Both the position numbers and the translations under genes were made by a program. The notes under the pieces are model-generated. The model was not told the DNA's origin, ran no database searches, and was given only the letters and a program-made list of their open reading frames with translations. Below, piece after piece: positions 23,612 to 41,534 of a stretch of 64,000 nucleotides of DNA (positions are counted from its first letter, which is position 1; every line of letters starts with the position of its first letter). The DNA comes from an uncultured archaeon (GTDB lineage Archaea > Thermoproteota > EX4484-205 > JAAOZP01): the NCBI GenBank assembly GCA_938045545.1, contig CALIBN010000008.1, positions 32,001-96,000 of the forward strand. Reading direction: 5' to 3'.

Positions 23612-24784
23612 ATGGAAAACTTCCAGTTTCAATGTCCCACTAGAATCGTTTTCGGCAGGGGTGTTGAAAACCTGGTTGGGGAAGAGGTGAAGAAATACAG
23701 CGATAAGGTTCTTTTCCACTATGGTGGTGGAAGCATAAAGAGAATAGGTCTCTACGACAGGGTTGTCGAATCCTTGAAGAGTGCAGGCGTCAGGTTTATC
23801 GAGCTTCCGGGTGTTAAGCCTAATCCCCGTTTAAGCCTTGTTAGAAAGGGAATAGAGGTCTGCAGGAGTAGTGGTGTAGACTTCATACTGGCGGTTGGGG
23901 GCGGGAGCGTCATAGACTCTGCTAAAGCCATAAGCGTGGGCGTCCCGTATAAGGGTGACGTGTGGGATTTCTACGTTGACAGGGCTGAGCCAGCGGAGGC
24001 TTTGCCCGTCGGGGTGGTTTTAACTATACCGGGGGCGGGTAGCGAGGCGAGCAGCAGCTCCGTTATTACGAACGAGGAGGATTGGCGTAAGCTTTCACTA
24101 ACAACCGAGCTCTTACGCCCCAGGTTCGCGTTGATGAATCCTGAGGTTACTTTTTCAGTGCCACCCTACCATACTGCTTGCGGAGCAGCCGACATAATGT
24201 CTCACGTCATGGAGCGGTACTTCACCAATGTGCGGCATGCTGATCTGACGGATAGGCTTTGTGAAGCTACTTTAAAAACAATGATCAGGAATGTTCCAAT
24301 CGCCTTAAGGGAGCCTGAGAACTATGATGCTCGGGCTGAAATAATGTGGGCCAGCACTGTTGCGCACAACGATCTTCTTGGAACAGGCCGGATAGGGGAT
24401 TGGGCTACGCACGTAATAGAGCATGAGCTCAGCGGCCTATACGACGTGCCGCACGGCGCTGGGCTGGCAGTATTGTTTCCAAGCTGGATGAGACACGTGT
24501 ATAAGCATCGCGTAGACATATTCGTGCAGTTCGCCGTTAGAGTCTGGGGTGTTGAGCCTGATTTCCAGGATCCTGAGAAAACAGCTCTTGAAGGCATAGA
24601 GATGCTGAAATCTTTCTTCAAGCGGATAGGGCTTCCGACGACGCTCAGGGAACTGGGTGTTCCTGAAGACAGGTTGGAGGAGATGGCGCTCCGGTGCACC
24701 GACTCAGGCCGCTCTAAAATAGGAAGCTTCGTAAAGCTGGGTAGGGAGGATGTCCTGAGTATTCTGAGAAACGCCAGAGGATAA
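23612..24784 (+). CDS. Iron-containing alcohol dehydrogenase (BdhA/butanol dehydrogenase type)
   Basis: GGGSIKRIG, NPRL, AVGGGSVIDSAKAI, DIMSHVMERY, HVIEHELS, HGAGLA. Confidence 0.95.
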   Translation: MENFQFQCPTRIVFGRGVENLVGEEVKKYSDKVLFHYGGGSIKRIGLYDRVVESLKSAGVRFIELPGVKPNPRLSLVRKGIEVCRSSGVDFILAVGGGSVIDSAKAISVGVPYKGDVWDFYVDRAEPAEALPVGVVLTIPGAGSEASSSSVITNEEDWRKLSLTTELLRPRFALMNPEVTFSVPPYHTACGAADIMSHVMERYFTNVRHADLTDRLCEATLKTMIRNVPIALREPENYDARAEIMWASTVAHNDLLGTGRIGDWATHVIEHELSGLYDVPHGAGLAVLFPSWMRHVYKHRVDIFVQFAVRVWGVEPDFQDPEKTALEGIEMLKSFFKRIGLPTTLRELGVPEDRLEEMALRCTDSGRSKIGSFVKLGREDVLSILRNARG

Positions 24785-27222: not shown

Positions 27223-27359
27223 TTTTTCAAGTCGTATTGTTTTGTTTCAGTCTCGGTGCGATATAAGGCTGTTGTTCAACTTGTGGCCTCATGGTCGGAA
27301 AACGGTTCCAAAACGTTCTAAACAAAATTTATAAGGTTTACCCCTCTATCCGTGAAGGC

Positions 27360-28496
27360 ATGAAGTATAGGCGGTTTGGGAAGCTGAACTTGCAGGTGTC
27401 TGCGCTCGGCTTCGGATGCATGAGGCTCCCGGTAATAGGCAACGACCATTCTAAGGTTGATGAGCCTGAGGCCATCAGGATGATAAGGTACGCCATAGAC
27501 CATGGCGTCAACTACGTGGATACTGCTTACCCTTATCACGGTGGGAATGGTGAGATCGTTGTTGGAAAGGCTTTAAGAGACGGCTACAGGGAGCGGGTTA
27601 GGCTGGCAACCAAGATGCCCATCTGGAACATTAATTCTAGGGAGGATATGGATAGGATTTTTGAGGAGCAGCTTAAGAAGCTTCAGACAGAATACGTGGA
27701 TTTCTACCTTCTTCACGCGCTGAATAAAAACAGCTGGCTTAAGATTAAAAACCTGAATGTTTTCGACTGGGCTGAAAGGGTTGTTTCCGAGGATAGGATA
27801 AAGTATTTAGGTTTCAGCTTCCACGACGACTATGAGGTTTTCAAGGAGATTATAGACGCGTATGACAAGTGGGCCCTCTGCCAAATACAGTATAACTATG
27901 AGAATGAAGAGGATCAAGCCGGGACAAGAGGGTTGAAATACGCTGCTGGGAAAGGGCTTGCCGTGGTTATAATGGAGCCTCTTTTAGGAGGGGCTTTAGC
28001 CAACCCGCCTCCGGCTGTGAAGCAGATCTGGGATGAGGCTGGTAAGGATCCTGTGGAAATGGCCCTACAATGGCTTTGGAACAAGCCTGAAGTCTCAGTG
28101 GTCCTAAGCGGCATGAGCACGATGGAGCAGGTTAAGCGAAACATTGAGTTCGCCTCAAGATCGGGTGTTGGGCTGCTTACTGAGGAGGATCTTAAGCTTA
28201 TAGCTAGGGTTCACGTTAAGTATAAGGAGCTCCGCCCAATTCCATGCACGAAATGCGGCTACTGCATGCCGTGCCCGAACGGTGTGGATATACCTTGGAA
28301 CTTTGAGGTTTACAATAATGGTGTCGCCTATAACTCGATTGGCTCAGCCAGATGGACGTACAATAATATCCCTGCTGAGAAGCGGGCGAGCGCATGCGTT
28401 GGCTGCAGGAGCTGCGAGGAGAAATGCCCTCAGAGGATTCCGATCAGCGAATGGATGCAGAGGATCGATAAGGAATTAAGATTCCAGCCGCCTTGA
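27360..28496 (+). CDS. Aldo/keto reductase with C-terminal 4Fe-4S ferredoxin domain
   Basis: LGFGCMRLP, DTAYPYH, LATKMP, MEPLLGG, CTKCGYCMPCP, CVGCRSCEEKCPQ; start set at ATG 27360 downstream of TTTATAAG. Confidence 0.93.
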   Translation: MKYRRFGKLNLQVSALGFGCMRLPVIGNDHSKVDEPEAIRMIRYAIDHGVNYVDTAYPYHGGNGEIVVGKALRDGYRERVRLATKMPIWNINSREDMDRIFEEQLKKLQTEYVDFYLLHALNKNSWLKIKNLNVFDWAERVVSEDRIKYLGFSFHDDYEVFKEIIDAYDKWALCQIQYNYENEEDQAGTRGLKYAAGKGLAVVIMEPLLGGALANPPPAVKQIWDEAGKDPVEMALQWLWNKPEVSVVLSGMSTMEQVKRNIEFASRSGVGLLTEEDLKLIARVHVKYKELRPIPCTKCGYCMPCPNGVDIPWNFEVYNNGVAYNSIGSARWTYNNIPAEKRASACVGCRSCEEKCPQRIPISEWMQRIDKELRFQPP

Positions 28497-30212: not shown

Positions 30213-31613
30213 TTAGACGATAGCTTCCCCCCTTTCGGTTAGGGAATAATACTCTCTCTTCCTACCCATGATCCTCTTGGCCTCCACTCTTTTAACATAC
30301 CCTTTTTCAACGAGATCGGAAAGATGCTGGTAAACCGTTGGAATCCTCACGTTCATGCCGTATTTCTCCCTCAACCCTCTCCAAACTTCGTAGCCGTACA
30401 TGTTTTTTTCAGACAGCAGCCTCAGGATGGCTGTCTTAGTAGAACCAAGTCTAACACCTCCGCTCAACTCCTCTATCAACACGCCTAGGCTAGACTTACT
30501 GTAGGCTATTTCCTTCATAACCCTAGGATCCTTGAGGCCGCTTCCAGTTACGACGCAAACCACTTTGGCGTCTCTCCTCACCTCTCCGCTTTCAACCAGC
30601 TTCATCAAGCCTGCTAGAGGAAGGCTTCCAGCCGGTTCTGCAAGTATCCCTTCTTTCTCAGCCAGTAGGCTCAGGGCTTCAAATATCTCTTTTTCGCTGA
30701 CGGATACTGCTAGCCCATCCGTCTGTCTTATTGCTCTGAGGGCAGCGTTTCCGAACCTGGGATTGGCCACGTTCAGGTCGAATATTCTGCTTCTCGGCTC
30801 GGCTTCAGCCTCGACAGCATCGAAGCCTTTTTCAAAAGCCCTCACTATAGGCTTACAGTCCTCCGTCTGGACTCCGACTATTCCTACGCTGCCCCCAGCG
30901 ACGCCAAGCTCCCTCAGCTCTCTCATCATTTTATAGGTTGCGTAGACGAGGCCTCCCTCCCCCATTGGGAGGACCACGTAGTCAAGTGGGCTCCCACTGA
31001 GCTGCAGGAGTATTTCAAGCATGATTGTTTTCTTAGCCTCGTTTATCAACGGGTCGTGCTCCGCCGCGACGATAGTTCCCCTTGAGGCGCGTTTCCCGAA
31101 GGAGTTGACTACGCTAACCTCCGCACCATATATTATCATCTGGTAAAGTTTCCCAACGTCTATCGTGGGCTTAACCTGAACATGCGTCTTTAAACCGGCT
31201 TTAGAGGAGTATGCTGCCAGCGATGCGCCAAGGTTCCCGGTTGAATAGGTGGAGATCCTTCCGTAACCTAGACTTAGGGCAACCGACACGAATAAGGCTG
31301 AGCTCCTGTCCAAGTATGAGCCCGTTGGTTCAACGGTCTCATCCTTAATCCATAGCTCTTCAACACCTATGCTTCTCCCGATTCTTAAGCCGTGTTGGAG
31401 CATTGTGTATCCCTCTCCTAAGGAGACTCTGAACTTTTTCTCAACAGCCGGAAGTATTCCGCTGTGCCTCCAGATTCCGTGCTCTCCCGGCTCCTCTAAA
31501 AAGGATGGTTTCATCTCCAGCGTTAATCCCTGTCCACACTTTTCACACAGCTTTCTTTCAACGCTGAAACTGTAGGCTGCCCCGCAGCTCGTGCATCTGA
31601 GAGCATGATTCAA
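30213..31613 (-). CDS. Threonine-synthase-like (fold type II) domain lacking the PLP lysine, with N-terminal Zn ribbon, fused to a C-terminal PadR-type winged HTH
   Basis: CTSC..CEKC, VSLGEGYT, KDETVEPTGSYLDR (canonical NPTGSFKDR), STGNLGASLAAY, EGILAEPAG, TGSGLKD; C-terminal ILRLLSEKNMYGYEVWRGL..IPTVYQHLSDLVEKGYV..RKREYYSLTERG. Confidence 0.9.
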   Translation of the reverse strand: MNHALRCTSCGAAYSFSVERKLCEKCGQGLTLEMKPSFLEEPGEHGIWRHSGILPAVEKKFRVSLGEGYTMLQHGLRIGRSIGVEELWIKDETVEPTGSYLDRSSALFVSVALSLGYGRISTYSTGNLGASLAAYSSKAGLKTHVQVKPTIDVGKLYQMIIYGAEVSVVNSFGKRASRGTIVAAEHDPLINEAKKTIMLEILLQLSGSPLDYVVLPMGEGGLVYATYKMMRELRELGVAGGSVGIVGVQTEDCKPIVRAFEKGFDAVEAEAEPRSRIFDLNVANPRFGNAALRAIRQTDGLAVSVSEKEIFEALSLLAEKEGILAEPAGSLPLAGLMKLVESGEVRRDAKVVCVVTGSGLKDPRVMKEIAYSKSSLGVLIEELSGGVRLGSTKTAILRLLSEKNMYGYEVWRGLREKYGMNVRIPTVYQHLSDLVEKGYVKRVEAKRIMGRKREYYSLTERGEAIV

Positions 31614-33454: not shown

Positions 33455-34129
33455 CTAGTCCTCCTCTACCTCCACATATCCTGTTTCAAAATTCCCCCCG
33501 GCTGCTTCAGGCCGAGCCCCTTCAGCCTCTCTTCTAAGCCTGATCAAGGAGTATACAAGGATCGCGAGTCCAGCTGCGAAGCCTACGGACGGCCCCACTG
33601 TTCTCAGAATGTCAACCTGCTCCTCCCATTCAGTGGCCCTGAGGAACCACGACTCCGTTATTTTGAACGTTGCTTCGACAGCACTATTACCAGGGGTGGT
33701 AGCGTTCAACACGTATGTGCCGTTAGCACTTATCATTAGATCCCTAGTATGGTTTCCAGCGTTGAAACTGGTTTGATTAATACTGGTACTGTTCTTCGCG
33801 AATACTAGGATGTTGATCGTACCGTTAGTTTCAACGTTAAGGCTCACTTTATACTGTTCCCCTCTCGCCGGGTTTAAAGGAACCTCTATTATCTTCTCCA
33901 TGCCGGTTATAACCTTGGAGAGTGGCCCATATTCCTGGGGTTGGGACGGTATTAAAACCTCCTTGGGGGTAAGCATGGTGATGGGTTTTCCGTTGAAAAG
34001 CATGTTAACTACGAAGGGTGATGAAACGGATGCGAGTACCACGCCTACGATAGCCATGATTAAACATTTCTTCCCAACATCCATTTCTCGCTCACTCCGA
34101 TACTTTCTCCAGCCTCCCGTTTCTTTCAA
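33455..34129 (-). CDS. Membrane protein with two TM helices flanking an extracellular beta-rich domain
   Basis: Hydrophobic N- and C-terminal segments, many N-glycosylation sequons; real start probably near 34084. Confidence 0.75.
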   Translation of the reverse strand: MKETGGWRKYRSEREMDVGKKCLIMAIVGVVLASVSSPFVVNMLFNGKPITMLTPKEVLIPSQPQEYGPLSKVITGMEKIIEVPLNPARGEQYKVSLNVETNGTINILVFAKNSTSINQTSFNAGNHTRDLMISANGTYVLNATTPGNSAVEATFKITESWFLRATEWEEQVDILRTVGPSVGFAAGLAILVYSLIRLRREAEGARPEAAGGNFETGYVEVEED

Positions 34130-34412: not shown

Positions 34413-34617
34413 AGGCTCCCCCGAAGTGTTGAGGCGGTGTGGATTTAAGGTTTACGGTGGAAACTAAAACTGTTTTACAGAATTAAAAAACTCTTTCTAA
34501 GCAGGGCCAATGCTTTACACAGGATTACGTCTCCAAATGTTCTTCGACGCTCGGTGAACCTCGCATCGGCCTAAGCATCAGGTTTATATATCTTATTGTT
34601 GTCATAATCCTGCCACT

Positions 34618-35874
34618 ATGAATTCCTCAGAAATATTTGAAGCTGCTTCTAAAAGCCGACTTTTAAAAGATCCCTACGTGGAAAAAATATGGAGTTTGAT
34701 GAATGATGAAAGCCTTTTCTCAAAGTCTCCGGATTATCTCAGTAAATTGAGGAAGAGCCTTTTTAGAGACGCGTTAAACTATTTTTCAAGACATAGTGAT
34801 TATTACCGTGAGCTTTTCGAGAGGCTTGAAGTAAACCCCAGGGATGCTGAGCTTGAGGATTTAGCTAAGCTTGCAGTCCCATCCGATATTCTGAGGGGGG
34901 AAGGCCATAAGCAGTTTCTGATCAAAGACGTGGAGGAGAATGGAGAGTATTTCATGTCAAGCGGCACTACCAATCCTAATCCTGTAAAGGTCTATAGGAG
35001 CCCTCTCGACTTGGCGATCATGATAAAGGGCAATACTTTTCTTTTCGAATACGTCTACGGGAAGGAGGTTGAAAGCGAGAAGGGGATCGCGCTTTTCATG
35101 GCTGCCCCGGAGCTCAGATACAGGCTTAACTTCGTTGCTTTCGTGCATCTTACTTTAGAATCGAAGAAAATCCCTCTTCTCTACGGTATGAACCTGGTTG
35201 AAGGAACTACGGATGGTAAGCCTTGGCAGAAACTCGTCCCCAACCAGGAGAATGTTCTCCGTTTCCTGAGAAGCAGGGAAGAGCCGAAGCTCCTTTTCAC
35301 CGCACCCGCCGGCGTCTATTTGCTGTCTAAAAAGTTTGAGGATATGAACATTGTTCAACGGCTACTCTATAGGCTGATTAAAATCCTCCCGATAAACCTT
35401 GGAAAGGGTGGTGTAGTTGTAACAGGAGGTGGGACCAAGGGTTTTGACCTGCCGCCCTACGATAAGATTGTAGAGTTCTCAAGGAAATATTTTGTTTCAC
35501 GCGGGCATGATGGGAGTGCTCAGGCTGTTCCATTCATGGATGTTTACGGGATGACTGAAACATTAACCGCTATGCTGGACAAGTTTGGAGAAATGGATAA
35601 GATACCGCACCCGCTTTCAGAAGTTTTCATTCTGAACCCTAAAACCTTCGAGTTAGCCAGAGGGGAGAATGCTGAGGGTGTTGTCGGAATATTTAATCCT
35701 TTCACGACATCTTGGCTTGAAATATTTTATCCTGGAGACATTATGCGCAGCCATCCTTCCAACAGGTATTACGGGAGGGAGTATGTTTACGTGAGGAGGC
35801 TGAGCGTAGACGAGGGCTGGAGTCTTCAGAGGGCGTGCGGCGGAACCCTTGAGGAACTAATGGGTAGAGGCTAG
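34618..35874 (+). CDS. LuxE-like acyl-protein synthetase (ANL adenylating family)
   Basis: P-loop FMSSGTTN, TGGG.KG, DVYGMTE, GD motif, C-terminal QRACGG Cys; TATA TTTATATAT near 34584. Confidence 0.8.
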   Translation: MNSSEIFEAASKSRLLKDPYVEKIWSLMNDESLFSKSPDYLSKLRKSLFRDALNYFSRHSDYYRELFERLEVNPRDAELEDLAKLAVPSDILRGEGHKQFLIKDVEENGEYFMSSGTTNPNPVKVYRSPLDLAIMIKGNTFLFEYVYGKEVESEKGIALFMAAPELRYRLNFVAFVHLTLESKKIPLLYGMNLVEGTTDGKPWQKLVPNQENVLRFLRSREEPKLLFTAPAGVYLLSKKFEDMNIVQRLLYRLIKILPINLGKGGVVVTGGGTKGFDLPPYDKIVEFSRKYFVSRGHDGSAQAVPFMDVYGMTETLTAMLDKFGEMDKIPHPLSEVFILNPKTFELARGENAEGVVGIFNPFTTSWLEIFYPGDIMRSHPSNRYYGREYVYVRRLSVDEGWSLQRACGGTLEELMGRG

Positions 35875-37335
35875 TTGAACATCATGCTTGAGCTTAAGCC
35901 TTTTTGCAGCCACAGGCATACTGTTGTGGAGAAAACGCAGAATCGCTACAGAATCCTGGAGATCAGCAGTGGAAGCATGAGGGAGATCATTAACATGTCT
36001 CCAGCGATTCAGGAAAGGCTTTCGAGCATAGGGATTCAGGAAAGGCTTGGAGTAATTGGTGAGATTGGTAAAATTTGGAGGGAGAAGCTCAACGATGGCA
36101 AGCTTGAAGAGTTGAAAAAAACTATCGCTAGAACAACAGGGTACAGTGAGAAGCTTATAGAAATGGAGTTCTCCCTAATCCCTATGGTTTTAAGCAAGGA
36201 AAGCCTTTGTGAAAACCTCGCGTGCTCCCCAGCCGGAAGTATTCTTGCGTTTGAAAGGTTCGTCGAGATAAAGAACGGCGAGAGCTTTAGAATTGCTCCA
36301 GCCGGGCCGGTGTTCATCATAAGCTCGGGGAACTCGCTTCTCCCAGCAATAATTCCTTCAACAATATCCCTCGCAACCGGCAACCTAACTATAGTAAAAC
36401 CCTCGCTTTCAAACTACTTGGGGGTTGTTGAAACATATGGAGCTTTATCGGAAATCGCTTCAAACTGCGAGGAGGCGGGAACCCTTAGGGACGCGCTTGT
36501 CATAAGCTACTTTACGCATGATAGTGCCTCCCTAAAATACCTTCTTAGCGAGGCTGAACTCGGCGTGGTGAACTTTTGGGGTGGTGAGCCGGCTAGAACC
36601 AGTGTTGCGAGAATGGTTTCGGAAAATCCTCATCGACCTAAACTTGTTGTGAATGGGCCTTTAACTGGATGTGCCCTTATAGATGAAAAGTCCGCTGACG
36701 AGAAAACGGCTGAAGGCTTAGCTAGAAACATTATCCTCTATGATCAACAGCTATGCAGTTCCCCAACCTCAGGGTTTTTCATCGGCTCCTGGCAGAACGC
36801 TCTTTCCTTCGCCAGTATGGTTGAAAGGTTTCTGAACGAAATTGGTTCAGATTTCGATTCTGACTTCGACGATGCCAGTATTTTTCTAACACAGTCTGCT
36901 AGAAAGGTCTTCCAGTTGAAAGGCTCGCACGTACTATCTTCGAAAAACCCTAGGAATTTTTGGACTCTGGCAGTGTCAAAGGAGAAAAGGGTTCTGGACG
37001 AGGTGGTCAATTCTCTTCCAGCCTTCAACATCTATGCTCGCAGAAGATTCTTGGAACTGGTGGTTGTAGGCTCCGTTGAAGAAGCATTGGAGCACGTTAG
37101 GAAGATTCCCGGATCACCCGCCTTCAAAGACGTTGATGGTGTTCAAACAATCGGGTACTCTATGAGCATGGATGAAAAGGTTCTTGAAAAGCTTGTTTCC
37201 CTTAGAGTATTCAGGGTTGTGCCGTTAAGCGACATGTTCATGAGGAGTCCCATTGAGCCCTACGACGGCGTCCCCATGCTCTCCGCGTTTACAAAAATAG
37301 TTTACCATAGGGATTTACAGCTGTTCAAGCCATGA
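35875..37335 (+). CDS. LuxC-like acyl-CoA/acyl-protein reductase (ALDH fold)
   Basis: GPVFIISSGN, IVKPS, FWGGE, NGP, YDQQLCSSP (catalytic Cys), C-terminal PYDG. Confidence 0.85.
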   Translation: MNIMLELKPFCSHRHTVVEKTQNRYRILEISSGSMREIINMSPAIQERLSSIGIQERLGVIGEIGKIWREKLNDGKLEELKKTIARTTGYSEKLIEMEFSLIPMVLSKESLCENLACSPAGSILAFERFVEIKNGESFRIAPAGPVFIISSGNSLLPAIIPSTISLATGNLTIVKPSLSNYLGVVETYGALSEIASNCEEAGTLRDALVISYFTHDSASLKYLLSEAELGVVNFWGGEPARTSVARMVSENPHRPKLVVNGPLTGCALIDEKSADEKTAEGLARNIILYDQQLCSSPTSGFFIGSWQNALSFASMVERFLNEIGSDFDSDFDDASIFLTQSARKVFQLKGSHVLSSKNPRNFWTLAVSKEKRVLDEVVNSLPAFNIYARRRFLELVVVGSVEEALEHVRKIPGSPAFKDVDGVQTIGYSMSMDEKVLEKLVSLRVFRVVPLSDMFMRSPIEPYDGVPMLSAFTKIVYHRDLQLFKP

Positions 37336-38327
37336 AGATACTCGTAACCGGCGCGTCTGGCTTTCTAGGCGGCCATCTGGTTGAGGAAATGGTTTCAAAG
37401 GGGTTTAGTGTAATCGGCATGGTTCGGAAAAGCAGTGACACGAGTCTCCTTAGAAGCATAGGTGTGGATCTGAGGATTGGGGATCTGACTGATCCTGAAA
37501 GCCTAAGCCGGGTTACTGAGAACATTGATATCGTCATACATCTTGCCGCATACTACACTTTCTTCGGGAAGAAAGAGATGTACAGGAGGATTAACGTGGA
37601 GGGAACTAGGCTTCTTCTAGAAGCGGCTTTAAGAAACGGTGTGAAAAGATTCGTATACTGCAGCTCTACTGAGGCCATAGGTCCTGTTAAGAGCCCGCCG
37701 GCTGAGGAAGATTCCCCACCGAACCCTTCCTACGAGTACGGAAGGTCTAAACTCGAGGCTGAAAAAATAGTTAGGAGTTACGGTGAGAAAGGTGTCGAAT
37801 ACACGATCCTCAGACCATCCGGAATATATGGTCCAAGGAATGTTGACGACATATCCTACTGGTTTATCACTGCTTTCGCTAGAAACGCTCTCCCAACGAG
37901 GATTATAGTCGGAGACGGGAGGAACCTTATACAATTCGCGTATGTGAAGGATGTGGTTCAGGGTTTCCTCTTGGTTTTGGATAAGCCTGACATATCTAGA
38001 AACCAGACGTATTTCATAAGCGAGGACAAGGCATACACCTATCTGGAGGTCTATGAAATATTGTCTGAGCTCTGCAACAGGGCTCCTCCTAGGATTCATG
38101 TTCCCCCTGTTCTTGCAAAGACGTTTGTGGCTCCGGTGGAATTTTTAAACAGGCTAAGGGGGAGAACTGTTTTCACTTGGAAAACCAGTACTGTGAACGA
38201 TCTGACGTGTGACAGGGCATACAGCATCATGAAAGCGGTGAGGGAGCTAGGGTTTAAGCCAAAATACGATCTTAGGACTGGCTTACGGGAGACCTTGGAA
38301 TGGTACAGGGAGAACGGCTATATCTGA
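37332..38327 (+). CDS. Extended SDR, NAD-dependent epimerase/dehydratase (3-beta-HSD/OleD-like)
   Basis: TGASGFLG, HLAA, NVEGT, SSTEA, YGRSK, LRPSGIYGP; ATGA overlap with the luxC-like stop. Confidence 0.92.
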   Translation: MKILVTGASGFLGGHLVEEMVSKGFSVIGMVRKSSDTSLLRSIGVDLRIGDLTDPESLSRVTENIDIVIHLAAYYTFFGKKEMYRRINVEGTRLLLEAALRNGVKRFVYCSSTEAIGPVKSPPAEEDSPPNPSYEYGRSKLEAEKIVRSYGEKGVEYTILRPSGIYGPRNVDDISYWFITAFARNALPTRIIVGDGRNLIQFAYVKDVVQGFLLVLDKPDISRNQTYFISEDKAYTYLEVYEILSELCNRAPPRIHVPPVLAKTFVAPVEFLNRLRGRTVFTWKTSTVNDLTCDRAYSIMKAVRELGFKPKYDLRTGLRETLEWYRENGYI

Positions 38328-38407: not shown

Positions 38408-39100
38408 ATGAGGATAAGAGTGCTGTTTGGAACCATCGACAGCTCGCTGCTCCGCTCTGATGCGGTTATTGCTATAGATGTTTTACGCTCGTCTACAACC
38501 ATTCTAACAGCCTTGGCAAATGGTGCTGAAAGCGTTATTCCTGTCGCATCTGTAGATGAAGCTCTAACGGTCGGAAATAGGCTTCAAGCAGTGATTGGCG
38601 GGGAGGTGAACAGTGTTAAGCCCCTTATGTTTCACCTTGGGAACTCTCCGCTTGAATACGTTCGGGATAAGATAGGCGGTAAAAAGGTTGTGCTCTACAC
38701 GTCGAGTGGAACAAGGCTCTTAAGGTTTCTGATGGCTGTTTCGAAAAAAGTATTGGTGGGAGCGATTGTCAACGTTTCCACGCTGGCGGAGTACATTGCT
38801 GAAGAAGGTTTTGAAAACGTGGCGATCGTCACAGCCGGTAAAATCGGCTTACCTGCTCTTGAAGACTCTTATTGTGCAGGGTTGATCGCTAAAAACCTTC
38901 CTTGGGAGGAGTGCGATGGAAACGCTGAGATCGTGATGAAGATGGCTGAGCTTAACATAGGTGTGGTGAAGAGGTCGCTTCACGCTTTGGAGCTTGTTAA
39001 ACTAGGCTTGGAAAGGGATGTCGAGTATTCTCTTAATCCCGACAGCATCAGGATAGTGGCTGGCGCGGATCCTTTCAAGGGATGTATCCAGCTCCTTTAA
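38408..39100 (+). CDS. comB: 2-phosphosulfolactate phosphatase family protein
   Basis: IDVLRSSTTI, GGE, LGNSP, TSSGT, ALEDSYCAG. Confidence 0.85.
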   Translation: MRIRVLFGTIDSSLLRSDAVIAIDVLRSSTTILTALANGAESVIPVASVDEALTVGNRLQAVIGGEVNSVKPLMFHLGNSPLEYVRDKIGGKKVVLYTSSGTRLLRFLMAVSKKVLVGAIVNVSTLAEYIAEEGFENVAIVTAGKIGLPALEDSYCAGLIAKNLPWEECDGNAEIVMKMAELNIGVVKRSLHALELVKLGLERDVEYSLNPDSIRIVAGADPFKGCIQLL

Positions 39101-40832: not shown

Positions 40833-41534
40833 ATGAGGCGCGACGCTGGAAGGCAGGGAGCCGGGGTCTTCAAGTCTGCCGAGATGATAGTTGCCTCAGG
40901 AGTGAGGCCTGGTGTTAAGCTGAGCGACATATACGAGGTTTGCACGGAGGCCTTGAAACACGGTATTAGGGATGTCTGCATACCCAGCGTATACCTGGGG
41001 GAGGCTGCAACCGTCCTTGAGAATACTGGTCTAAAGTTGTCTACAATGATATCTTTCCCAACCGGTTTGGCGCCTGTCGAGCTGAAAATGATGGAGGTCA
41101 GGCTCGCCTCTGAGCATGGTGCTGAAGAAGTCTACTTCTACCCGAATTTGGGGAACTATCTGGACAGTAGGGTCGTAGAGTTCGAATCGGAGCTCTCCAG
41201 AATGGTGGAGGGCTCTCAGCTACTCGGCTTGAAAAACGTTAAACCGGTCGTCGAGATAGACCTGGTTTCAGAGAAGCAGTTGAGAGAGCTCACCAGTATT
41301 TTCGAAACATCTGGTTTCGACACGGTGGTTTTCTCAACAGGCTTCGGCTTGAGGAACGTGAGTCTTAAAGAGCTGAGGATTCTCAGCACTGTCGAACAGG
41401 ATGTTATGGTTGAGGCTCACTGCAGGCTGGGTTCCATACGGGATTTGCGTAACCTGTTTGAAAACGGGGTTCGTAAAGTATGCACGGTGGACTACAGGGT
41501 CGTTTTGGAAGAAGGTTCTGAAAAAACGGCTTGA
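40833..41534 (+). CDS. DeoC/deoxyribose-phosphate aldolase-like TIM barrel lacking catalytic lysines
   Basis: VCIP, ISFPTG, K..E...A...GAEE, KPVVE; FDTVVFSTGFG (canonical ADFVKTSTGF); VEAHCRL (canonical VKASGGI). Confidence 0.75.
   Translation: MRRDAGRQGAGVFKSAEMIVASGVRPGVKLSDIYEVCTEALKHGIRDVCIPSVYLGEAATVLENTGLKLSTMISFPTGLAPVELKMMEVRLASEHGAEEVYFYPNLGNYLDSRVVEFESELSRMVEGSQLLGLKNVKPVVEIDLVSEKQLRELTSIFETSGFDTVVFSTGFGLRNVSLKELRILSTVEQDVMVEAHCRLGSIRDLRNLFENGVRKVCTVDYRVVLEEGSEKTA

Follow-up and report, generated by a model that had tools for sequence, protein, structure and literature searches.

A conserved archaeal cassette of LuxE-type, LuxC-type and extended SDR genes with a proposed role in CoA-independent carboxylic-acid reduction

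Based on sequence comparisons, structure models and surveys of related loci, we describe a three-gene archaeal cassette encoding a putative LuxE-type acyl-protein synthetase, a putative LuxC-type acyl-protein thioester reductase and an extended short-chain dehydrogenase/reductase (SDR). The cassette lies in a stretch of 64,000 nucleotides (nt), hereafter the window, from an uncultured hot-spring archaeon of the Thermoproteota (lineage EX4484-205; JAAOZP01; assembly GCA_938045545.1, contig CALIBN010000008.1, positions 32,001 to 96,000 of the forward strand). The source assembly (51 contigs, 2.03 Mb in total) has a completeness of 92%. Our preferred reading, which we hold to be reasonably probable, is that the three genes form one operon for a CoA- and carrier-independent two-component carboxylic-acid reductase, followed by an alcohol-forming reductase. 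The cassette is real, conserved and uncharacterised, and the mechanism proposed for it is well-founded. Its elements are the following:

34583..34590, + strand: TATA-box-like TTTATATA, 27 nt upstream of the gene 1 ATG, read from the sequence
34618..35874, + strand: gene 1, LuxE-type acyl-protein synthetase, 418 amino acids (aa), ATG start
35875..37335, + strand: gene 2, LuxC-type acyl-protein thioester reductase, 486 aa, TTG start
37332..38327, + strand: gene 3, extended SDR, 331 aa, ATG start

The TAG that closes gene 1 ends at 35874 and the TTG of gene 2 begins at 35875, a gap of 0 nt, and the gene 2/gene 3 junction is an ATGA overlap (37332-37335). An alternative in-frame ATG at 35884 would give a gene 2 product of 483 aa and a 9-nt gap to gene 1. 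The TTTATATA element is likely the promoter of a near-leaderless three-gene transcript, as its position 27 nt before the ATG fits the usual archaeal TATA-to-start spacing of such a transcript. An earlier note, made from the letters of the window without database searches, had described this arrangement of three abutting plus-strand genes behind a TATA box, together with SSGTT, YGMTE and a C-terminal cysteine in gene 1, YDQQLCSSP in gene 2 and YxxxK in gene 3. All of these are present in the sequence, and the annotation of the neighbours in the window agrees with the further statement of the note that no luciferase (luxAB), LuxD, acyl carrier protein (ACP) or FabG gene adjoins the cassette.

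Family assignment and pairing of the first two proteins

Gene 2 carries YDQQLCSSP at residues 289-297 and matches the Pfam LuxC family (PF05893) with 85.7 bits, at a cut-off of 21, over residues 53-473 and positions 5-399 of the 401 in the profile. A phmmer search pairs it with LuxC of Photobacterium phosphoreum (7xc6_A; E 2.7e-12), placing YDQQLC opposite YDQQAC, and the family profile does so with E 3.3e-20. In the alignment, Cys294 coincides with the catalytic Cys296 of P. phosphoreum LuxC, and it is invariant in 18/18 gene 2 sequences. The AlphaFold2 (AF2) model of the protein has a predicted local distance difference test (pLDDT) score of 88.8, and its top Foldseek match is again 7xc6_A (E 1.1e-22, template-modelling (TM) scores of 0.77/0.78), with aldehyde dehydrogenases (ALDHs) listed below it at TM 0.59-0.71. 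Taken together, sequence and model identify gene 2 as a probable LuxC-type thioester reductase with Cys294 as the predicted catalytic residue. It belongs to the LuxC family without being orthologous to the luminescence enzyme, scoring 59.2 bits against the LuxC equivalog NF052251 of NCBIfam (cut-off 750) and adjoining neither luxAB nor luxD.

Gene 1 contains SSGTT (114-118), YGMTE (310-314) and, in its tail (...LQRACGGTLEELMGRG), Cys407. Excerpts of PMC9157457 describe the hallmarks of bacterial LuxE as the lack of a C-terminal subdomain and a tail of ~20 residues with the conserved Cys364, combined with an R354/R355 pair and a GGGWK loop, the catalytic Lys238 of which replaces the subdomain lysine of PaaK1. 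Corresponding elements are found in gene 1, where SSGTT, GGGTK274, YGMTE, PGD374, R393-R394 and C407 are conserved in 22 relatives, with GGGTK274, R393-R394 and C407 invariant or at least 90% conserved. Cys407 is present in 21/22 of the aligned relatives, the one exception being a lone, decaying copy. The HMMER alignment places VRRL of LuxE opposite VRRL of gene 1, and the Lys274 loop was paired with GGGWK of LuxE by motif, not by residue-level alignment. The tail cysteine is located 13 residues past the arginine pair, compared to 9 in LuxE, in the tail motif EGWxLQRACGGTLEEMM.

Hidden Markov model searches, which the earlier note had proposed as a check on the two families, return LuxE for gene 1 and LuxC for gene 2, the former at the very limit: gene 1 scores 24.9 bits against Pfam LuxE (PF04443), its sole Pfam match, the gathering threshold being 24.9, which makes the match borderline. 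A precomputed PF04443 match is listed for 2 of the 120 best-listed gene 1 homologues. When the genome of origin was searched with the PF04443 model, gene 1 was missed because the match is too weak, and protein and profile queries recover it. The gene 1 family sits at the edge of PF04443 detection. A profile of the 22 relatives run against the Protein Data Bank (PDB) has LuxE (7xc6_E, E 0.0028) as its best match, followed by PaaK (2y4o, E 0.91).

The AF2 model of gene 1 (pLDDT 86) shows a PaaK-like N-domain. Its residues 30-398 align with residues 7-330 of PaaK1 (Z 26.2, root-mean-square deviation (rmsd) 3.0, 315 aligned), and after this part 20 residues remain, with low pLDDT. The top structural matches are PaaK1 (2Y27), BT_0428 (4R1L) and 2-hydroxyisobutyryl-CoA ligase (6HDW), which share with gene 1 the fold of the large N-domain (Z 25-26, ~315-324 aligned, rmsd 3.0-3.1) as well as the SSGTT and YGxTE nucleotide motifs, whereas other adenylating enzymes reach Z values of at most 15.5. 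Unlike these PaaK-type ligases, gene 1 has no C-terminal subdomain and carries the tail cysteine instead. We therefore regard gene 1 as a predicted LuxE-type self-acylating adenylating enzyme, built on a PaaK-like N-domain only.

The same structural likeness can be read in favour of a CoA-dependent pair, i.e. a PaaK-type aryl- or acyl-CoA ligase and a CoA-acylating aldehyde dehydrogenase that serve acid catabolism or fermentation, a reading we find very unlikely. It would agree with the three ligases topping the structure searches, with the name phenylacetate-CoA ligase given by JGI to several gene 1 homologues, with the names acyl-CoA reductase or aldehyde dehydrogenase given by NCBI to gene 2 homologues, and with the 23.4 bits that gene 2 scores against Pfam Aldedh. 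However, gene 1 aligns to the N-domain of PaaK alone, and what it lacks is the subdomain that, according to the available parts of PMC9157457, holds the catalytic lysine of PaaK1 (Lys422) and shapes the CoA site, so that neither an equivalent of Lys422 nor the usual conformation for CoA thioesterification would be available. A near-invariant cysteine stands in its place, gene 1 has no match to Pfam AMP-binding or AMP-binding_C, the family profile ranks LuxE before PaaK, and gene 2 is nearer to LuxC than to any ALDH both by sequence and by structure. The earlier note had named a better fit to PaaK-type ligases and ordinary ALDHs as one outcome that would speak against its reading; this holds for the structural matches of gene 1, along the N-domain only, and fails for gene 2, which is nearest to LuxC of 7xc6_A.

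Modelling of the complex, also suggested in the note, supports that the LuxE-type and LuxC-type proteins bind each other. The predicted gene 1-gene 2 complex reaches an ipSAE of 0.61 (0.59-0.61 over three runs), whereas the best of 3 controls stays at 0.01. The complex passes a mark that is reached by 58/80 solved complexes and by 2/110 mismatched pairs. The runs share at least 81% of their contacts, and the pLDDT of the partners is at least 89. The predicted interface includes residues 395-397 of gene 1, located just past R393/394, and residues 333-348 of gene 2, and D332 of gene 2 aligns with the LuxC aspartate that forms a salt bridge to LuxE R354. The interface is situated in the region of the R354-D335 salt bridge between LuxE and LuxC reported for the solved complex 7XC6 (PMC9157457, in part). 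As this complex is already solved, the model may pass through its likeness to 7XC6, and the pass is no proof of binding.

Conservation of the cassette and its inheritance as a unit

The earlier note had asked for a survey of the trio in other genomes, and two surveys find the order LuxE-type gene, LuxC-type gene and SDR gene across several archaeal phyla. This order is present in 26/30 loci of the first survey, equal to 25/29 distinct loci once L008 and L058, which represent one and the same contig, are counted together; of the rest, one locus is not long enough. The second survey covers 89 loci, 80 metagenomic and 9 reused from the first, with the LuxE-type gene in 85 and at least 2600 nt of downstream sequence at 61. 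At these 61 loci with enough flank, the LuxC-type gene adjoins the LuxE-type gene in every case (61/61), and the SDR gene is also present in 56, of which 54 were recognised by clustering of open reading frames (ORFs) and 2 more by tblastn. Over 25 loci, the three proteins co-vary in their identity to the copies in the window (Spearman 0.84-0.91), with p-values that overstate the significance because the loci are related.

Gene 1 homologues are 56-91% identical among the 120 best of 187 matches, and 55-98% identical across the genome loci compared; for gene 2 the range is 41-96% (120 best of 178 matches). The named matches listed are all archaeal and belong to Thermoproteota, Nitrososphaeria, Verstraetearchaeota/Methanomethylicia, Methanomassiliicoccales, Archaeoglobaceae, Odinarchaeota, Sulfolobales, Thermofilum and Conexivisphaerales; Zestosphaera, Methanosuratincola and Odinarchaeum are also among their labels. 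The occurrence of the same gene order in such distant archaea implies that the arrangement is not due to chance. The distribution of gene 1 is patchy, with a copy in 39/401 sampled genomes of the phylum of the window (13/161 genera) and in 5/133 of another phylum. Names in the databases are inconsistent and say little ('hypothetical protein', 'phenylacetate-CoA ligase', 'aldehyde dehydrogenase family protein').

Loci that have lost part of the cassette are informative in this respect. At three loci of one family (L053, L054 and L060, in genomes G104, G096 and G144), a LuxE-type gene stands alone inside the same synteny block, and a LuxC profile finds no match anywhere in the three genomes (0/3, 93-96% complete), with positive controls found in 3/3. 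Of 124 columns in which 19 other homologues never vary, the lone copies are changed at 6, 11 and 28, compared to 0-5 in leave-one-out controls; the reference homologues were taken without regard to genomic context. In the most decayed copy (L060), Lys274, the glutamate of YGMTE and Cys407 are all lost. Decay of this kind would be expected if gene 1 is functionless without its LuxC partner.

We also note a few possibly broken copies, for each of which an assembly error is possible: a LuxC-type gene split into ORFs of 343 and 181 aa (L056, 9293-10882), an SDR match in two overlapping pieces (L012, 9727-10946) and a LuxE-type gene in two pieces (L064/L066, G429:C38).

Proposed reaction, its direction and its product

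The checks on families, conservation and complex formation proposed in the earlier note favour its reading of an acid-reductase module independent of CoA and ACP. The reaction scheme below is inferred throughout, including which way it runs and what the SDR does. Gene 1 would adenylate a carboxylic acid with ATP to the acyl-AMP, with Lys274 of the GGGxK loop and Arg393/394 standing in for the missing C-terminal subdomain of the ANL (acyl-CoA synthetase, non-ribosomal peptide synthetase adenylation domain, luciferase) enzymes. It would then shift the acyl group to its own tail, yielding acyl-S-Cys407, and the flexible tail would bring the thioester to Cys294 of the bound gene 2 protein. There, acyl-S-Cys294 would be reduced with NADPH to the aldehyde, and gene 3 would convert the reactive aldehyde to the alcohol.

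Parts of this scheme have precedents. As in the LuxC-LuxE system of P. phosphoreum (7XC6; PMC9157457, seen in excerpts), the cassette employs two proteins, an activating enzyme without the ANL C-terminal subdomain that displays a GGGxK loop, an arginine pair and a tail cysteine, and an ALDH-fold reductase with the catalytic cysteine in YDQQxC. On the other hand, the archaeal sequences are very distant from the bacterial ones, the tail motif differs (EGWxLQRACGGTLEEMM compared to TRxxKGCxLS in LuxE), luxAB and luxD are absent and an SDR is added, and the archaeal hosts, unlike luminous bacteria, are anaerobic and without visible fatty-acid metabolism.

A second comparison is offered by carboxylic acid reductase (CAR) and the alpha-aminoadipate reductase Lys2, which are built as A-PCP-R, hold the acyl group on the phosphopantetheine arm of the peptidyl carrier protein (PCP) domain and rely on an SDR-type R domain for its reduction. 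The activation of a free acid with ATP, the enzyme-bound thioester and the NADPH-dependent reduction to an aldehyde without CoA would be common to both, whereas the archaeal cassette has a reductase of the ALDH fold and would use, as carrier, a cysteine within the activating enzyme. None of the three cassette proteins has a Pfam match to a PP-binding domain.

Gene 3 contains TGASGFLGG at residues 6-14, corresponding to TGxxGxxG, and Y136-G-R-S-K140; TGxxGxxG, S111, Y136 and K140 are invariant in 13/13 gene 3 sequences. A basic pair past strand 2 (VRK/VRR) is present in 8/13 of these, with the arginine alone (VRP) in 2 more. In SDRs, a basic pair after strand 2 usually accompanies the use of NADPH, and gene 3 is probably an NADPH-dependent enzyme and a candidate aldehyde reductase. 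It scores 175 bits against Pfam Epimerase and 86 bits against NAD_binding_4, the fatty acyl reductase type. The nearest NCBIfam families are HpnA (165 bits, cut-off 368), OleD (132, cut-off 580) and SdmB (128, cut-off 600), none of which is reached; these closest named families are lipid-acting SDRs, with sugar-nucleotide enzymes close behind (dTDP-glucose 4,6-dehydratase, 109 bits). The best PDB match is 3WJ7, on which the literature searched held nothing relevant, and UDP-glucose 4-epimerases are among the further matches.

From the latter similarities it might be argued that the cassette acts in glycan or glycolipid tailoring, with the LuxE-type and LuxC-type proteins supplying an acyl or aldehyde unit and the SDR working as a nucleotide-sugar epimerase or dehydratase, reminiscent of the luxE/luxC genes of bacterial flagellin glycosylation islands. 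We hold this to be unlikely. The scores of the SDR against Pfam Epimerase and the dehydratase and its epimerase matches in the PDB suit such a role, and so do the luxC/luxE homologues in flagellin glycosylation islands of Aeromonas and Enterobacteriaceae, as covered by the available sections of PMC7874193 and PMC4875605, which resemble the archaeal genes in being uncharacterised pairs outside bioluminescence. According to the same sections, however, the flagellin-island pairs adjoin ACP, FabG, a second AMP-ligase and glycosyltransferases, whereas the archaeal pair has an extended SDR. No glycosyltransferase, nonulosonic-acid, ACP or FabG gene adjoins the cassette in the window or is found among the scanned representatives of the recurrent neighbour clusters. 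Moreover, the lipid-acting HpnA, OleD and SdmB score above the sugar enzymes, albeit all below their cut-offs, and the basic pair of the SDR suits an NADPH reductase more than an NAD+-bound epimerase.

The direction of the reaction deserves separate attention. The cassette could be run backwards, with the SDR oxidising an alcohol, the LuxC-type enzyme converting the aldehyde to a thioester and the LuxE-type enzyme using AMP and PPi to release the acid and ATP, such that energy of the enzyme-bound thioester would be conserved in a CoA-free substrate-level phosphorylation; as the main function we rate this highly improbable. AMP-forming ligases are reversible, the hosts are anaerobic, no acyl-CoA oxidation genes were found in the source genome, and an iron-dependent alcohol dehydrogenase (Fe-ADH) is encoded 10 kb upstream in the window (23612-24784, +), all of which would be compatible with oxidation. 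So would the description of Brockarchaeota, which in the parts of PMC8065059 available leaves the route of butanol oxidation unresolved and lists for it a butanol dehydrogenase and a 'putative aldehyde dehydrogenase'. The Fe-ADH of the window may be this butanol dehydrogenase, and one could speculate that the cassette and the Fe-ADH together form the missing link between butyrate, butyraldehyde and butanol in Brockarchaeota; a locus whose record is labelled Candidatus Brockarchaeota (L009) has a gene 1 copy that is 99% identical. Against oxidation, no pyrophosphate-related gene is recurrent beside the cassette in the surveyed loci, and the patchy spread (39/401 and 5/133 genomes) suits accessory biosynthesis over core energy metabolism. 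The basic pair of the SDR suggests NADPH, typical of reductive roles. In addition, every characterised LuxCE system is reductive, as far as the consulted parts of PMC9157457 and PMC12041015 describe them.

Returning to acid reduction as the preferred function, several observations weigh against it. The Pfam LuxE score of gene 1 lies exactly at the cut-off, a phmmer search of the PDB with gene 1 alone gave no match, LuxE (7xc6_E) is absent among the matches listed in three structure searches that are led by PaaK-type CoA ligases, and some sources name the homologues phenylacetate-CoA ligase. Gene 3 also resembles sugar-nucleotide epimerases and dehydratases, is missing at 5/61 loci, and its action on an aldehyde is deduced from adjacency alone. 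At these 5 loci there are weak hints of a non-orthologous replacement for the alcohol step: a zinc-dependent alcohol dehydrogenase is located ~1 and 2.4 kb upstream in two, and a classical SDR 1.5 kb downstream in one. As to the host, an anaerobe short of energy pays a high price for an acid reduction that takes ATP to AMP. Searches of the source genome (92% complete) gave one AMP-binding ligase, but neither an acyl-CoA dehydrogenase nor an enoyl-CoA hydratase; with no beta-oxidation genes found, an endogenous fatty-acid pool is not evident. Finally, the scheme as a whole derives from genes and models.

Regarding the substrate, the unusually strong conservation of the sequences argues for one specific acid and not a broad range. 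With no beta-oxidation genes found, a fatty acid would need an external source, unless the acid is a different one. Candidate products or uses are an alcohol, a lipid component, a cofactor precursor and a fermentation route. A connection of the cassette with the butanetriol backbones in the lipids of Methanomassiliicoccales was considered and dropped, as these backbones arise by methylation. The broader proposal that the cassette represents a general CoA-free interconversion of acids, aldehydes and alcohols in anaerobic archaea without acyl-CoA metabolism seems to us decidedly unlikely. As an equally open alternative to it, the cassette may make a fatty or isoprenoid alcohol for an undescribed archaeal lipid.

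Among the matches listed in searches of the literature on LuxC, LuxE or acyl-protein synthetase together with archaea, no paper on the archaeal cassette was found; the LuxC/LuxE literature retrieved consists of bioluminescence papers and the uncharacterised luxE/luxC pairs of bacterial flagellin islands. LuxCE-type acid reduction has been studied essentially in bioluminescence alone, and the archaeal cassette would extend to another biological setting this rare mechanism, in which the acyl group is held on a cysteine of the activating enzyme itself, without CoA or phosphopantetheine. Knowing which acid is used would close a gap in our picture of archaeal metabolism, and compact, thermostable two-protein carboxylic-acid reductases may be of use in biocatalysis.

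Recurrent neighbours and surroundings in the window

Comparison of the neighbourhoods of the surveyed loci revealed no firm fourth partner gene. A MenA-like UbiA prenyltransferase gene lies directly downstream and on the same strand in 11/12 of the loci having it, all from one lineage, namely:

UbiA-bearing loci: L091, L096, L099, L102, L105, L106, L114, L115, L118, L120, L121

In this lineage, the gene 1 of which is ~57-63% identical, UbiA follows the SDR, a radical SAM gene is placed on the opposite strand and GrpB upstream, and the arrangement could represent a pathway extension towards a prenylated product. As a core partner UbiA was rejected, with relatives in 33/401 Thermoproteota genomes and none in f1, f7, f11 and f28, the main cassette-bearing families. 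DrrA/DrrB-like ABC-2 genes occur within 8 kb in varied arrangements, the ATPase at 22/89 loci and the permease at 16/89; enrichment over chance is not established, because each genome has 14-31 related ATPase matches. A HAD hydrolase adjoins the cassette in 4/18 loci, too few to interpret, and thiol-redox genes, likewise discarded as partners, are found beside it solely in the synteny block of one family.

In the window, the neighbours of the cassette are housekeeping genes unrelated to it: a deoxyhypusine synthase, a fusion of a pyridoxal-phosphate (PLP) enzyme with PadR, a GH18 protein, a signal peptidase, a ComB-type phosphatase, an IF-2B family protein and an isopropylmalate-type dehydrogenase. 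The ComB-type 2-phosphosulfolactate phosphatase gene (38408-39100, +) is located directly downstream with a TATA-like box of its own, and keeps this place after the cassette in 10/12 near loci and in 0 of the distant ones. The fusion protein (30213-31613, -; 466 aa) combines a PALP, threonine-synthase-like PLP domain (63-357) with a C-terminal PadR-type winged helix (396-464) and is thus an enzyme-regulator fusion. An aldo/keto reductase fused to a 4Fe-4S dicluster domain is encoded ~6 kb upstream of the cassette (27291-28496, +). Two ORFs have no Pfam family, one of 233 aa (40833-41534, +) and one of 224 aa (33455-34129, -), the latter of which is kept beside the signal peptidase gene in 11/12 near loci.

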